Assembly (NCBI GenBank): GCA_029940535.1 | Contig: JAPYUM010000002.1 | Coordinates: forward strand, 19,264-83,263 | DNA length: 64,000 bases | Source: Vicinamibacterales bacterium | GTDB lineage: Bacteria; Acidobacteriota; Vicinamibacteria; Vicinamibacterales; UBA8438 | Direction of reading: 5' to 3' | In this document: positions 35,968 through 49,563 of the stretch, piece by piece | Layout: each line of letters begins with the position of its first letter | How positions within the stretch are numbered: the stretch's first letter is position 1 | The notes under the pieces: generated by a model | What the model saw: only the letters and a program-made list of their open reading frames with translations | Told to the model about the DNA's origin: nothing | Database searches by the model: none | Position numbers and translations under genes: made by a program

Positions 35968-38517
35968 CTAGCAGCAACCCGACCCAGGTTCGCAGCAGGC
36001 GTCGTTGTCAGGCCCGACCGTGATGTCGCGAATGCCGCTCGGGCCATCGACGATGGAGAACGAGCCGACGTAGGGTGCGTGTGACAGCTTGGCGGCGGTG
36101 TCGGTGCACACCTCGACCGCTTCCCCCCGTGGGAAGAGGTGCCCTTCCTCGTCGACGACTGCCTTCTGCGGACCCAGATAGATCGCGTACTGCCCGATGA
36201 ACTGACAGCCGGCCTTCTTCTCGAACTTGTAGCCTCGCACCGTCACGGAGTAGAACTTGCAGCCTTCGACCTCACGCCAGAAGGTCTTCTTCAGCACCGA
36301 CACCCCGTAGAATCCAGCCTTCTCTACCCCGGCCAGGAACGCCTCCTCGGTCAGTGCTCCCGAGATGCACTCGCCCCAGAGTTGGCCATCGGCCCGCATC
36401 TTTGGCGGCACCTCGTCCTCGGACACGATATCGGCCACGACGAGCCGCCCGTGGTCTTTCAGCACGCGCCAGATCTCACGGAAGACACGCGGCTTGTCCG
36501 GTGACAAATTGATGACGCAATTCGACGTCACCACGTCGACGGTCGTATCATCGACCGGGATCTCTTCGAGAAAGCCCTGTCTGAACTCGACCGCATCGTA
36601 GCCAAGCGCCTCGGCGACCTGGGGCTGACACTCGCGGGCGACCGACAGCATCTGGTCGGTCATGTCGACCCCGTAGATACGACCCTCGGGGCCCACTTTC
36701 TTGGCCGCGATGAAGCAGTCGATACCGGCGCCAGACCCGAGATCGACCATCGACTCTCCGGTGGCCAGTGCGGCGGCCGTGACCGGGCTGCCACACCCGT
36801 AGAACCGCTCGACAACCTCTTTGGGAATGTGCTCCAAATCGGCGGGCTCCGGCTGGACCGGACAGCAGAGCTCCTCTTGTGGTTTCTCCGCCGCGTCGCC
36901 GTAAAACTCACGCACCGTCAGACGCGACTTGTCGAGCACCTCTTCGGAGAGCACGCACGCCGAGTGCGTCGTCCGCACAATCGTGTCCTCATCATGCAGC
37001 GTGTGCTCGCCCATGCCGCGCAGCACGACGGGACGGTCGTAGCCTGCGTTCGGCTGCACGGTGGCCCGGCCCTCTCGAACCAGATCCGTGAAGGTGTCGG
37101 CGGCCAGACCTTTGTAGAGTTCGCAGTACGGATCGTGGGCGATGAACGCCGACCGCCGACTCCGGCCCTCGGCGGCCGCCGGCCAGTATCCGTGTTCGAC
37201 ATCGCCCCCCCCGCAGAGAAAACGTAACGAACAGGTCCGGCACAACGGTTTCCGCTCGACAGTCGCCTCGCGCAGGTCTCGGCAGACCGGGCTGGTCTTC
37301 CAGACCTCCTCGAGACGCTGTTCGGCCAAGTTGCCGCACCGCAACTCGGGCACCCCGGCCATCGAGGCCGATGGATACAAGTTCCCGTCCGTATACAGAC
37401 AGAGACTGCTCCAGCCAGCTCCGGCGAGGTCGTTCTTCACCCCGGGGCTGCCGTCGAGACGCAGCCGGAATTCCTCGATGTTGTCGATCGACACCCCGAG
37501 CTCGGTCGCCACCGCACGTGCCTTCCGCACGGCGGCCAGAATCTCCTCGGCGGCGGGCAGGTCAGCCAGTGCGCCGTCCAGCACGCGACCGCGACGGTGC
37601 GGCCACAACAAATGCACATTCCGGACGCCGTGGGCGTGTGCGAGTCGGACGATATCGTCCAGGGCATCGAGATTGTGACGCAGAATCGTCGCCGTCAGCG
37701 TCGGCCGCAGACCGGCGGCGACCGCAATGTCCACACCCTCCACGATGCGCTCAAACGTGCCATGACCACGAATCGGGTCGTTGATCGCGGCGGTCGGGCC
37801 GTCGAGGCTGATCTGAATCCGCAGACCGGGAACGGGCGCGTCGGCTGGGACGTCGGCGGCCGGCGTATGCGCCTCGACCACGGACAGCAACTGCACCAGT
37901 CGCGCCAGTCGCTCCCCCTTGAACATGGTCCCGTTGGTCAGAATCACCAACTCGCGGCCGTGCGTGCGCACGACACGGTCAGCCAGATCCAGAATATCCG
38001 GCCGCGCCAACGGCTCGCCACCGGTGAAGAACAGCCGTTGCGCTCCGAGCGTCACCGCTTGGTCGATGGCGTCGGCAATGACCTCGGTCGGTAGGCCTTG
38101 TTGACGCTCTGGCCCCGACGAGACCAAACAGTGCGCGCAACTCAAATTGCAGAAGTCGTTGACCTGGATCCACAGCTCGTACAGATGCTCCGTCTCCAGA
38201 TAGGCCGACCGGCCGAGGTACGGCGCCGGGGCGGCGCCGTCGGTCGACAGAAACCCCTGGCGAAGACCGTCGTGCGCGAATGTCTCGACATGCAGCCAAG
38301 CGCGAGTCACATCGAGCCCCGACGCGTTGGCGTAGTCGCGCACCACCTGCACGAAGGGGGTCCGACCATCGAACCGGCCCAGCAACCCCAACCCGCGATC
38401 GTCGGTGCCGATCCAGTGCGGTCTCGCGGGATCGAGCGCCACAGCGTCATTCCCGACGTCATGCACCGTATAGGCCGGTGCACGGAGCATGGTCTTGTCT
38501 TCAATCACGATAGGCAT
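35968..38517 (-). CDS. fusion protein: (PqqD-like N-domain?) + radical SAM/SPASM + full-length ArsM/AS3MT-type methyltransferase
   Basis: Radical SAM CNLSCAHC (aa 123-130) and a SPASM-like CRTCSLRFLCGGGD. The ArsM part spans aa ~525-849: CC (551/552), YGCG (575), VDLGSGAGID SAM motif, SNCVINL (667), WGECISGA (717), ...VEVCTDTA... and a Cys-rich tail CCEPGSGCC. Confidence 0.85.
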   Translation of the reverse strand: MPIVIEDKTMLRAPAYTVHDVGNDAVALDPARPHWIGTDDRGLGLLGRFDGRTPFVQVVRDYANASGLDVTRAWLHVETFAHDGLRQGFLSTDGAAPAPYLGRSAYLETEHLYELWIQVNDFCNLSCAHCLVSSGPERQQGLPTEVIADAIDQAVTLGAQRLFFTGGEPLARPDILDLADRVVRTHGRELVILTNGTMFKGERLARLVQLLSVVEAHTPAADVPADAPVPGLRIQISLDGPTAAINDPIRGHGTFERIVEGVDIAVAAGLRPTLTATILRHNLDALDDIVRLAHAHGVRNVHLLWPHRRGRVLDGALADLPAAEEILAAVRKARAVATELGVSIDNIEEFRLRLDGSPGVKNDLAGAGWSSLCLYTDGNLYPSASMAGVPELRCGNLAEQRLEEVWKTSPVCRDLREATVERKPLCRTCSLRFLCGGGDVEHGYWPAAAEGRSRRSAFIAHDPYCELYKGLAADTFTDLVREGRATVQPNAGYDRPVVLRGMGEHTLHDEDTIVRTTHSACVLSEEVLDKSRLTVREFYGDAAEKPQEELCCPVQPEPADLEHIPKEVVERFYGCGSPVTAAALATGESMVDLGSGAGIDCFIAAKKVGPEGRIYGVDMTDQMLSVARECQPQVAEALGYDAVEFRQGFLEEIPVDDTTVDVVTSNCVINLSPDKPRVFREIWRVLKDHGRLVVADIVSEDEVPPKMRADGQLWGECISGALTEEAFLAGVEKAGFYGVSVLKKTFWREVEGCKFYSVTVRGYKFEKKAGCQFIGQYAIYLGPQKAVVDEEGHLFPRGEAVEVCTDTAAKLSHAPYVGSFSIVDGPSGIRDITVGPDNDACCEPGSGCC

Positions 38518-38563: not shown

Positions 38564-39190
38564 CTACGTCGGCTGCGAAGCGCGGGCCGCGGCCACCGGC
38601 GCGGCCGCGGCCCGCTTGGTGTAGAAGAACCATAGTCGAAGCCCGAACAGGACCGCGAGCACGGCGGCGTAGACCAGCGGTGGGCCGATGTCGAGTTTCA
38701 CCAGCCACAGATAGTGCACGACGCCCGCCACGGCGGCCAGATACACCAGCCGATGCAACCGACGCCAACGTTGCCCACCGAGCCGGCGAATCATGCCTTT
38801 GGTCGACGTGAGCGCCAACGGCACGAGCAACACGAACCCCGTGAACCCGGCCGTGACATACCGCCGCTCGACAATGTCATCGAGAATCAGATCGAACGCG
38901 AAGAAGAAGTCCAACACCAGATAGGTGCTCAGATGGAGCACCGCGTAGAAGAACGCGAACAGCCCGACCATTCGGCGGTATGACGCGAGCGCTGACCACC
39001 CGAGCAGCTTCCGCAGCGGCGTCACGGCGAGCGCCGCGAGCAAGAACCGCAGCGTCCAGTCGCCGGTGCGATGGGTGATGTCCTCGATGGGGTTCGCGGT
39101 GAGTCCGCCAGTGAATGCCGCCCAGACCAACAGGCCCAGCGGGGTCAAGCACGCCGCAAACACCCACGGCTTGATGCGGCGCACCGTCAT
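38564..39190 (-). CDS. msrQ: protein-methionine-sulfoxide reductase heme-binding subunit MsrQ (YedZ)
   Basis: 208-aa ferric-reductase-like 6-TM protein with conserved His residues; immediately downstream of msrP. Confidence 0.9.
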   Translation of the reverse strand: MTVRRIKPWVFAACLTPLGLLVWAAFTGGLTANPIEDITHRTGDWTLRFLLAALAVTPLRKLLGWSALASYRRMVGLFAFFYAVLHLSTYLVLDFFFAFDLILDDIVERRYVTAGFTGFVLLVPLALTSTKGMIRRLGGQRWRRLHRLVYLAAVAGVVHYLWLVKLDIGPPLVYAAVLAVLFGLRLWFFYTKRAAAAPVAAARASQPT

Positions 39191-39233
39191 ATGGCCTCGC
39201 CCTCAGGCACCCCACCGAACCCGTCCGGTGTAC

Positions 39234-40193
39234 TCAGTAGTTCTCGACCAGATCCATGCCGTCGTAGAGGCTGGCCACCTGGTCGGCATAGCCGTTGAAT
39301 GGCTCGGTTCTCATTCTGAAGAAGCTGCCGATCCGACGCTCGCTCGCCTGACTCCACCGCGGATGACTCACGTCCGGGTTCACGTTCGAGTAGAACCCGT
39401 ACTCGCTCGGAATGGACACGTTCCAGGAATTTCTGGGCTGCTCCCGCACGAACTCCATCTTGACGATCGACTTGATGCTCTTGAATCCGTACTTCCAGGG
39501 CACCACCAACCGCAGCGGCGGGCCCTGCTGATTCATCAGCGTTTTGCCGTACACCCCGACGGCCAGAATGGCCAGCGGATGCATCGCCTCGTCCATTCGC
39601 AGTCCCTCGACATACGGCCATTGCAGGGACCGGCCCCGCTGGCCACGCATCTCCTCGGGACGATGCAACGTCTCGAACTTGACGTACTTCGCGTTCGACG
39701 TCGGCTCGAACCGCTTGATGAGGTCACCGAGCGGAAACCCGACCCACGGCACCACCATCGACCAGGCCTCGACACAGCGCAGTCGATAGATGCGCTCCTC
39801 CAGCGTGTGAGGACGCAGCAGGTCCTCGATCGCCACGTCGGCCGCCGGCTTGTTCATCTCGCCCTCGATCCGGACAGACCACGGGTCGATGGACATTTCG
39901 TGGGCGTATCGGGCGGGGTCTTCTTTGGCGGTGCCGAACTCATAGAAGTTGTTATAGCTCGTAATGTCCTCGTACGAGTTGGGCTCGTCGTCGGTGCTGA
40001 GCGGCGACTTCACGAGATTCGGAATCGGCTCCTGGGCCTGCGCCGTCCCGTCGTATCGTCCAAGCACAGTGCCGCCCGCGATGGCGCCGGCCACCGCGCC
40101 GGACGTGGTCTGAATAAACTGCCGGCGGTTGCGATACACCCGCTCGGGCGTAATCTCCGACGAGCGAATGTCCGGCGCTTGCTTGATCAGCAT
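39234..40193 (-). CDS. msrP: protein-methionine-sulfoxide reductase catalytic subunit MsrP (YedY), molybdopterin enzyme
   Basis: Tat signal [11 protein letters not shown] and the sulfite-oxidase-family Moco domain ([19 protein letters not shown]). Confidence 0.93.
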
Positions 40194-48415: not shown

Positions 48416-49450
48416 TTACCGCACGAGCGGACGCCATTCGAGCGTCCAACTGACCGGGAGTTCGACCGGTGTATAGCAGATGGCGTCGTCGCACGCCTGA
48501 TACTCCAACACCCCGTCGATCGTGAGACGCGCGTCCGGCTCGGCCGCCATTCCGGCGATCTCGCGAGTCATCGAAATCGTCACCTCCTGCACGAGCTGAA
48601 ATGGCTGCACGAAGACCTCGACCCGTTCGTCGAGCGGTTCGAAATGGTAGATCTCGGCGGCCGGGTAGGTCACCTCGTGGGCCCGCACGAACTCAGGCGC
48701 CTCAACCCGAAGACTGATGACCTGATAGCTGTGCGCACCCGGAGCGTAGACGTGCATGCCCGCCTTGGGTGTCACGTCGACCACCAGCGAGAAGCGATTG
48801 CCGGGGGCCACTGTGCGGTCGGTCGGGTAGGCCAGCGCCTCAAGGTGGTCCGTCGTGAGCCGCGTGGCGTTCCTGTCCGTCCCATCGGCCGCCTCGCCCA
48901 GCGCCACCATGATGCTCGACACGGTAAACCGCTCCTGGTAGGCCTGCTCGAAGAAGCGCTCGGTGACCCGGCCCTCAGGGTCGAGAATGAACGTGCCCGG
49001 ATAGGGGATACCGTAGAACCGCACGCCCGGCGCCTGCTCACGATTCAGCAGGTCGTAAGCCTTGATGATCGCTGACCCCTCGTCTGACAGCACCGGGAAC
49101 TCGATCCCGCGCGTATCGGAGAAGCCTTTGAGGGTATCGACCGTGTCGTAGGTGATGACGGCGAGTCCAAGGCCTTGGGCCGTGATGTCCGCGTAGCGGC
49201 TTTGCAGCTCCACGAGCTGCGTCTTGCAATACGGTCACCAATCCGCCGACCGGCTAAACACCAGCATCGCACCCTGGGGCCCCATGATGGACTCCACGGT
49301 CTGCGCTTGCCCGGACTGGTCCGGGAGACTGAATGCCGGGACGACGTCGCCGACCTGTGGGCCGAACTGATCCACGTCAGGCAGATCCTGGGCGACCGCG
49401 CCGAGCGCCACCGCCAAGAGGAAGATGCCGGAAAACACGAAATACCGCAT
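48416..49450 (-). CDS. secreted AhpC/TSA-redoxin-like protein fused to a DsbD-N/DsbC-like domain; candidate selenoprotein (in-frame TGA at 49235..49237)
   Basis: Two same-frame track ORFs are separated by a single TGA. Read-through gives FSRSADW-U-PYCKTQLVELQ, the redoxin WCxxC context. There is a signal peptide, and the C-terminal domain carries YQACDDAICY. Confidence 0.7.
49204..49220 (-). promoter_or_regulatory. candidate bacterial SECIS hairpin
   Basis: GCAGCUC-GUG-GAGCUGC forms a perfect 7-bp stem starting 14 nt after the in-frame UGA, with G/U in the apical loop. Confidence 0.5.
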
Positions 49451-49563
49451 GTCTCTTGTCTCCAGAGTGCCCGATGGATCCGGGCGGGCCTGACAGCAAG
49501 ACGCCGCCGACAAGCGAAACTCCCCCCCCCCTAAATACAGAGACGGCGGAGACGAGGGCCGAG

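Follow-up and report, generated by a model that had tools for sequence, protein, structure and literature searches.

A predicted exported selenoprotein redoxin with a fused DsbD-alpha-like domain, divided at its UGA codon in annotation, in a Vicinamibacterales contig

The analysis of a 64-kb stretch of DNA from a Vicinamibacterales bacterium (contig JAPYUM010000002.1 of assembly GCA_029940535.1; this whole stretch, at 66% GC, is the window, and all coordinates are window-based) reveals two annotated open reading frames (ORFs) which very probably form one gene, on the minus strand, for an exported redox enzyme whose catalytic selenocysteine (Sec) is encoded by UGA. The frame from 49513 to 48416 is open except for one internal stop, TGA 49235..49237, and the ORF list splits it into 49235..49513 and 48416..49213, both on the minus strand. 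The first-pass annotation, made from the sequence alone, had described two same-frame ORFs parted solely by this TGA, and both are present where it placed them. Read-through yields GAMLVFSRSADW, the internal stop and PYCKTQLVELQSRY, so that the stop which follows GAMLVFSRSADW is itself followed directly by PYCKTQLVELQ.

This reading is strengthened first by the position of the stop within a conserved protein domain. A Pfam search run with Cys substituted for the internal stop gave an AhpC-TSA match (E=2e-28, 99.2 bits versus a cutoff of 26) that crosses the stop at residue 72, and homologues carry Cys at that position, in agreement with the earlier proposal that the stop stands at the first Cys of W-C-P-Y-C. 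At the protein level the comparison covered the best 120 database matches, 38 of which are full-length proteins of ~350 residues with 53-58% identity to the window protein; all 38 have Cys at the column (DWCPYCKTQ). The other 82 are products of 225-280 residues, and the closest of these (63-99% identical, 265-277 residues) comprise the post-stop part only. The shortened homologues that were aligned start with "MEL", which corresponds to a GTG in the loop of a hairpin downstream of the UGA, and the DNA behind these short products contains the in-frame TGA too, with flanks conserved on both sides. At the DNA level, 88 homologous gene copies from 87 sources were compiled, 80 further loci from a scan with one genome per species having been added to the loci fetched for the short homologues. 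The loci of the species scan belong mostly to metagenome-assembled genomes (MAGs) of Vicinamibacterales and other Acidobacteriota, with a few from SAR86, Pseudohongiella, Betaproteobacteria and other Gammaproteobacteria. At the active-site codon, 76 of the 88 copies have TGA and 12 have TGT or TGC, the aligned column thus holding either Cys or TGA. The TGA copies are 45-99% identical and span several phyla, and in a neighbour-joining tree the Cys forms are scattered among them, as would be expected under repeated Sec/Cys exchange. One Cys form (L025) falls inside a clade of TGA forms and appears to have been converted recently.

The conservation of both halves bears directly on whether the gene is functional. 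Orthologues share the layout of the window gene, and the ratio of nonsynonymous to synonymous substitution rates (dN/dS), computed between the window and six orthologues over 48 codons upstream and 60 codons downstream of the TGA, is 0.05-0.23 upstream and 0.22-0.37 downstream, with synonymous sites upstream of the TGA saturated (dS at least 1). Values well below 1 on both sides indicate that both halves have been kept as coding sequence over a long divergence, which excludes a pseudogene. Taken as a lone sequence from a 66% GC genome, the in-frame stop might have arisen by mutation or through an error of sequencing, that is, a nonsense mutation in a Cys-type redoxin with a hairpin placed there by coincidence; but the recurrence of the TGA across 76 copies of such divergence, the identical 265-residue product found on 15 independent contigs and the retention of the hairpin in step with the TGA leave this explanation a vanishingly small probability. 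The initial argument that a chance nonsense mutation was unlikely is thus borne out by a TGA codon shared among 76 of the 88 copies and by a protein conserved on either side of it.

A second alternative takes the annotation at face value, with two separate genes encoding an exported peptide of 71-92 residues and a 265-residue protein that starts at the GTG at 49213, and gene callers do make this split, both here and across dozens of public records. Such a split would nevertheless cut the AhpC-TSA/thioredoxin fold between its first strands and its active-site helix, leave the 265-residue product without a signal peptide and without the first position of its CxxC motif, and place the start codon in a hairpin loop, whereas the Cys-form homologues are continuous proteins of ~350 residues. 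We regard two genes as hardly credible, and with the AhpC-TSA match crossing the TGA and dN/dS low on both sides no real two-gene architecture was found. The start of the single gene is better placed at the ATG at 49450, from which a signal peptide had been proposed: the N-terminus is signal-peptide-like, GGAGA lies 9 nt upstream, and signal-peptide-like N-termini were seen in 16 of the 16 orthologues inspected (the cleavage site was judged by eye).

Evidence for Sec insertion also comes from the hairpin that follows the UGA, which the first-pass annotation had called similar to a selenocysteine insertion sequence (SECIS). The model of bacterial SECIS elements (bSECIS; PMC13188914) specifies a loop of 3-9 nt, a stem of 4-16 bp, a UGA-to-loop distance of 16-37 nt, a G at loop position 1-2 followed by G or U, and a minimum free energy (MFE) of <= -7.5 kcal/mol; the window hairpin agrees on every count, with a GUG loop, a 7-bp stem, G then U, a spacing of 21 nt and -11.6 kcal/mol for the 21-nt segment that contains it. 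At least six of the seven pairs are present in all 76 TGA forms, at an invariant distance from the UGA, while the hairpin is kept in only one of the 12 Cys forms (L025). Fold energies of the 21-nt segment range from -8.0 to -11.6 kcal/mol across the TGA forms and average -3.9 in the Cys forms, so that the MFE threshold is passed by 76 of 76 and by 1 of 12, respectively.

These observations were further strengthened by covariation statistics on 74 distinct sequences, using 500 column shuffles and partner slides of 1-3 columns as references. Paired cells amount to 98.5% in the true register and to 14-53% when partners are slid, compensatory changes occur in three of the seven pairs (A-U replaces G-C in six sequences and C-G in one, and C-G replaces G-C in one), and none of the 500 shuffles matches the observed pairing or covariation score. 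Only 48 of the 4608 synonymous encodings of TQLVELQ permit all seven pairs, yet the full stem is present in 68 of the 76 TGA forms, and the third-codon positions of the stem are nearly frozen (xCG 72/72, GAG 72/72, CTC 67/72). The peptide encoded at the hairpin is likewise near-invariant in TGA forms, whereas the Cys forms vary (LAELQ, MLDLQ, AIELQ, MVELQ), which indicates that the RNA constrains the protein and not the reverse: the Q-L-V-E-L-Q peptide and its synonymous sites are frozen because the hairpin must be kept. The family thereby offers a natural experiment, in which TGA forms keep and Cys forms lose the hairpin, that shows a SECIS within coding sequence freezing QLVELQ and the synonymous sites beneath it. 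How Sec is encoded remains, as established knowledge, unchanged by the window gene.

When compared with known bacterial SECIS elements (the E. coli fdhF type and the bSECISearch consensus), the hairpin is alike in being a stem-loop in coding sequence just past the UGA, with a small apical loop carrying G then U, a 21-nt spacing and a stable upper stem. It differs in its loop of only 3 nt, or 5 nt with the least conserved closing pair unpaired, in having no bulged U and in having no lower stem conserved across the family, and SelB binding is putative. A lower stem (CGUAC with GUACG) was considered as a family feature and set aside, being present in some lineages only.

Acidobacteria are already among the phyla listed as using Sec (PMC1794560), and Sec-decoding genes adjoin TGA-form orthologues in two Acidobacteriota lineages of our set. 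At one TGA-form locus (L065), selA lies ~2 kb downstream of the redoxin, encodes a product 51% identical to E. coli SelA and has a tRNA-Sec gene just upstream; in L093 (6932-11410), the TGA-redoxin is ~2 kb from tRNA-Sec and selA. Three loci (L094-L096, 8707-14438, including the NCBI MAG contig MELF01000015.1) hold a TGA-redoxin, tRNA-Sec on the opposite strand, selA, a selB that carries SelB winged-helix domains, and selD; their redoxin reads W, the TGA codon and then PFCRTQLVELQ, with the hairpin unchanged. The same selC-selA-selB-selD cluster occurs on two Vicinamibacterales MAG contigs (L097, L098). The tRNA-SeC beside selA, selB and selD in the related contigs is canonical, at 95 nt (ARAGORN). 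SelD in these contigs is itself UGA-encoded: in L095 (~13440) and L097 (~13965) its frame contains a TGA where the E. coli protein has Cys17, within AAAG-TGA-AAKLGP, and a hairpin 32 nt after that TGA has a CGUGC loop whose G-U-G apex resembles that of the redoxin. An apparent SelB match in L030 proved to be CysN and was dropped. Downstream of selD, L094-L098 have a conserved cluster with several DUF6152 and metallo-beta-lactamase-fold genes in both lineages, and selD is followed by a B12-binding radical SAM gene in L094 and L095 and by a CytoC_RC gene in L097/L098.

This setting also bears on a decoding alternative, in which the UGA is read by a SelB-dependent tRNA(Cys) mimic (selC*) or by an opal-suppressor allo-tRNA, so that the residue would be Cys or another amino acid. 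Possible nonsense-suppressor allo-tRNAs have been described in Acidobacteria, and a selC* tRNA(Cys) reads UGA in some anaerobes, although selC* is known from Firmicutes, Thermodesulfobacteria, Nitrospirae and Proteobacteria and not from Acidobacteria (PMC5389517). The canonical tRNA-SeC and selA, selB and selD stand directly beside the TGA-form orthologue in related contigs, and a general suppressor would have no need for a position-fixed, covarying hairpin. It would also misread the 18 of 42 putative window genes that end in TGA, a usage which further indicates that TGA has not been globally reassigned. Decoding of this kind is accordingly very improbable, and insertion of Sec at codon 72 remains our preferred reading, which is favoured by each check carried out among those suggested with the first-pass annotation. 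The features of the gene are collected in Table 1.

Table 1. Features of the predicted selenoprotein gene, in window coordinates
Feature	Position	Strand	Remarks
Complete predicted selenoprotein gene	48416..49450	-	344 codons plus TAA stop; ATG 49448..49450; Sec at codon 72; single frame
Likely ribosome-binding site, GGAGA	49459..49463	-	read from the sequence, 9 nt upstream of the ATG; putative function
Predicted signal peptide, residues 1-21	49388..49450	-	MRYFVFSGIFLLAVALGAVA, then QD; hydrophobic core, A-x-A-like end
UGA read as selenocysteine U72 (predicted)	49235..49237	-	first position of U-P-Y-C; TGA/Cys column of homologues
GTG (Val80), false start of the 265-residue ORF	49211..49213	-	sits in the hairpin loop; chosen by gene callers
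SECIS apical hairpin (predicted), GCAGCUC-GUG-GAGCUGC	49204..49220	-	17 nt, 7 bp; begins 14 nt past the UGA; UGA-to-loop 21 nt
Prx-like/ResA-like thioredoxin-fold domain, residues 33-164	48959..49354	-	Pfam AhpC-TSA (PF00578); contains U72-P-Y-C75
DsbD-alpha/ScsB-alpha-like beta-sandwich domain, residues 215-329	48464..48808	-	Pfam DsbD_N (PF11412)
Cys pair C320-x4-C325 (YQACDDAICY)	48476..48493	-	in the DsbD-N-like domain; invariant in 39 aligned sequences

The N-terminal domain had been assigned to an AhpC/TSA/redoxin context; the Pfam family stands, and the assignment is refined here to a peroxiredoxin (Prx)-like/ResA-like domain that is not a canonical peroxiredoxin. Its sequence matches in the PDB are BCP-type peroxiredoxins and ResA. 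When aligned with BCP, the Thr of PxxxTxxC is the counterpart of the Sec column and the peroxidatic Cys that of Cys75, and the P-x-x-x-T-x-x-C motif of canonical peroxiredoxins is replaced by S68-A-D-W-U72-P-Y-C75, with Ser for Pro and Sec for Thr. The catalytic Arg of canonical peroxiredoxins has no aligned equivalent either, the BCP Arg (GIER-STF) aligning with the Tyr of I-P-Y-P-G-T-F, a loop of the cis-Pro type (P-G-T-F). The ResA alignment places U-P-Y-C over C-P-H-C and I-P-Y-P-G-T-F over the ResA cis-Pro loop. The lack of the Prx motif and of an aligned Arg, together with a ResA-type motif and loop, point to a Prx-like fold with thioredoxin-like catalytic logic. Matches to NCBIfam models, BCP among them, were all sub-threshold (ResA 46.7 versus 170 bits, DsbE 16.7 versus 123 bits), and the SelL-related redox protein model (NF040769) scored 38.8 bits versus a cutoff of 120. 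An AlphaFold2 model of a Cys homologue that is 55% identical (P0062; predicted local distance difference test, pLDDT, 90.8; predicted template modelling score, pTM, 0.85) places an all-beta domain after a thioredoxin-fold domain, and Foldseek with the latter returned BCP, AhpE and ResA at target template modelling (TM) scores of 0.7-0.84.

Pfam and fold comparison agree on the second domain, so the suggestion of a DsbD-N-like C-terminal half holds. The DsbD_N match reaches 34.3 bits versus a gathering cutoff of 25 (E=3e-8), and a model of the window protein's C-terminal 150 residues (pLDDT 94.5) has as its top two PDB fold matches the N-terminal domain of ScsB (6C29) and nDsbD of N. meningitidis (6DPS), at a moderate similarity (E ~5e-5, TM 0.54-0.66). 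A phmmer search of the C-terminal domain against PDB sequences returned nothing significant, the nDsbD/ScsB-alpha relationship being found by fold comparison only. The C320/C325 pair is probably redox-active, by analogy with the DsbD-alpha family. No transmembrane domain was found in the redoxin protein, and its DsbD_N part is not carried here in the polypeptide of a DsbD/ScsB membrane transporter.

These features suggest a mechanism in which the UGA at codon 72 would be read as selenocysteine, with the hairpin serving as the bacterial SECIS to which SelB is recruited together with its Sec-tRNA(Sec). Export and cleavage of the signal peptide would then leave a two-domain mature protein in the cell envelope, where Sec72 would serve as the attacking nucleophile on an oxidised substrate (a disulfide, a sulfenic acid or a peroxide) and Cys75 as the resolving residue, forming a selenenylsulfide with Sec72, much as in UxxC selenoproteins of the thioredoxin type. 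The fused DsbD-alpha-like dithiol would reduce this selenenylsulfide and would in turn be re-reduced by a membrane electron transporter of the DsbD/CcdA/ScsB type, encoded elsewhere in the genome. The nearest precedent from experiment is Caulobacter crescentus, in which ScsB keeps the periplasmic Prx-like protein PrxL reduced and, through TlpA, also the peroxiredoxin PprX (PMC3322552); the reduction of PrxL by the alpha-like domain of ScsB fits electron flow from the alpha-type to the Prx-like domain. Selenium incorporation in the window's organism, the direction of electrons between the two domains and the substrate are inferred.

Electrons might also run the other way, with the Sec domain acting like DsbD-gamma and passing electrons from a CcdA-like donor to the fused alpha-like domain and on to partners of the DsbC/DsbG/CcmG type. 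This direction has precedent in DsbD, in which the thioredoxin-like gamma domain reduces alpha and alpha reduces thioredoxin-fold clients (PMC3322552), and ResA-like proteins, to which the N-terminal domain is best matched in sequence, are known clients of CcdA. The Caulobacter alpha-like domain runs in the opposite direction when it reduces PrxL (PMC3322552), and we consider reverse flow unlikely, although it keeps an appreciable share of the probability. A flow from the alpha-like dithiol towards Sec72 is the direction we favour.

Several results weigh against a selenium-dependent relay in this organism. Searches of the 64-kb window with E. coli SelA, SelB and SelD (tblastn) returned no selA, selB or selD, ARAGORN found no tRNA-Sec and indeed no tRNA in it, and a scan of all same-frame ORF pairs split by TGA found no second in-frame-TGA gene in the window. 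With sel genes absent from the window, we infer Sec decoding in its organism from relatives. The hairpin matches no Rfam SECIS family, whether the whole window is searched at the gathering threshold or the locus at E <= 10, where only chance-level matches appeared; Rfam covers SECIS elements of bacteria poorly. Within the window, no DsbD/CcdA-type partner is encoded near the redoxin, the neighbours of which are cupin, His-phosphatase, CHAD, Ppx and citrate synthase genes on one side and OmpA and MFS genes on the other. One relative (L093, 3175-4851, minus strand) does encode a 558-residue protein in which a cupredoxin-like N-terminal part is combined with a DsbD_TM/DsbD_2 membrane domain, ~2 kb from its TGA-redoxin and adjoining a cytochrome c gene, and this protein is a possible electron donor. 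As a conserved partner DsbD_TM was rejected, being seen only at L093 and not in the window or at other loci. Other TGA-split ORF pairs in the window were dismissed as off-frame artefacts typical of 66% GC DNA, and a consensus scan for promoters and terminators found nothing.

The relation to known selenoproteins places the window gene within an established class. Kryukov and Gladyshev reportedly described a Prx-like UxxC selenoprotein family in 2004. The "Prx-like thiol:disulfide oxidoreductase" (PF00578, UxxC; reference member WP_010940744.1 of Geobacter) has counted since 2004 among the prokaryotic selenoprotein families predicted with high confidence, and in the selenoproteome of the Global Ocean Sampling (GOS) project "Prx-like 1" was the eighth most abundant family, with 225 sequences (PMC13188914, PMC2398784, PMC1794560). 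Judged by its PF00578 domain and W-U-P-Y-C motif, the window gene is a member of this Prx-like UxxC class, and GOS "Prx-like 1" probably included its marine relatives (SAR86, Pseudohongiella). Likenesses to the family include the AhpC/TSA domain, Sec first in U-x-x-C, the wealth of Cys homologues and a SECIS in coding sequence directly after the UGA (PMC2398784, PMC13188914); the window protein differs in being exported and in its fused DsbD-alpha/ScsB-alpha-like domain with a C-x4-C pair. On the GOS fusion list, the "Unknown_3" domain has CxxC, in contrast to the C-x4-C here.

Comparison with neighbouring redox systems further delimits the protein. As in the ScsB/DsbD pathways, an exported Prx-like CxxC-type protein is paired with a beta-sheet domain of the alpha type (PMC3322552), but here the alpha-like domain is joined to the Prx-like domain and not to the transporter, the nucleophile is Sec and the transporter gene is unlinked. 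With ResA/TlpA/CcmG it has in common the W-C-x-x-C context, the P-x-T-F cis-Pro loop and the fold, and it differs from them in having Sec for Cys, in the extra C-terminal domain and in scores far below the family cutoffs. It resembles canonical peroxiredoxins in overall fold, Pfam family and the location of C75 at the peroxidatic Cys, whereas the Sec of the Eubacterium acidaminophilum Sec-containing Prx lies in PxxxTxxU and that of the window protein sits at the Prx Thr position.

Nothing relevant came up in literature searches on Sec in Vicinamibacteria or on a DsbD-alpha fusion as a selenoprotein; a DsbD-alpha/ScsB-alpha fusion architecture goes unmentioned in the reviews and in the GOS fusion list, and neither the prevalence of the gene in Vicinamibacterales nor its placement beside selC-selABD was found described. 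The DsbD-N-like fusion therefore appears to be undescribed. We advance tentatively, and at somewhat less than an even chance, the broader proposal that it represents a distinct and unrecognised architecture: an exported, self-contained relay that joins a DsbD-alpha/ScsB-alpha-like dithiol domain to a Prx-like one with U-x-x-C and would define an envelope pathway, reductive or antioxidant, that depends on selenium, the family being widespread in soil Vicinamibacterales and marine Gammaproteobacteria (SAR86, Pseudohongiella) and linked in some of them to selC-selA-selB-selD. Such an architecture would point to the use of selenium in the oxidising envelope of largely aerobic soil bacteria, by way of a fused DsbD-alpha-like relay.

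The gene also illustrates a recurrent annotation error. In public records the shortened products are named "hypothetical protein", "redoxin domain-containing protein" or "peroxiredoxin", and N-terminal pieces of 71-80 residues are called as separate hypothetical proteins. The family is hidden in annotation because the GTG of the SECIS loop is taken as a start codon, and with 82 of the 120 closest homologues cut at the UGA, most of them starting at that GTG, the selenoproteome of the abundant soil Acidobacteriota is under-counted.

Some genomes hold two TGA-form redoxin paralogues, each pair on one contig (L086, L013/L084, L017/L079 and L046/L052); in L086, a gammaproteobacterial MAG, the copies are in tandem at 1851 and 3030, ~1.2 kb apart. 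In the window, the 113 nt that separate the upstream cupin gene from the redoxin ATG contain a run of ten G (49522-49531, minus strand; ten C on the plus strand), which may be prone to slippage or sensitive to sequencing. Adjacent Oxidored_molyb and Ferric_reduct genes (38564-40193, minus strand), ~9 kb away from the redoxin, resemble MsrP/MsrQ (YedY/YedZ) and, on that resemblance, would be a further redox-repair system of the envelope, of the periplasmic methionine-sulfoxide reductase type. Beside them, an 849-residue ORF (35968-38517, minus strand) encodes an unusual fusion of Radical_SAM, SPASM and SAM-methyltransferase (Methyltransf_31/11/25) domains.

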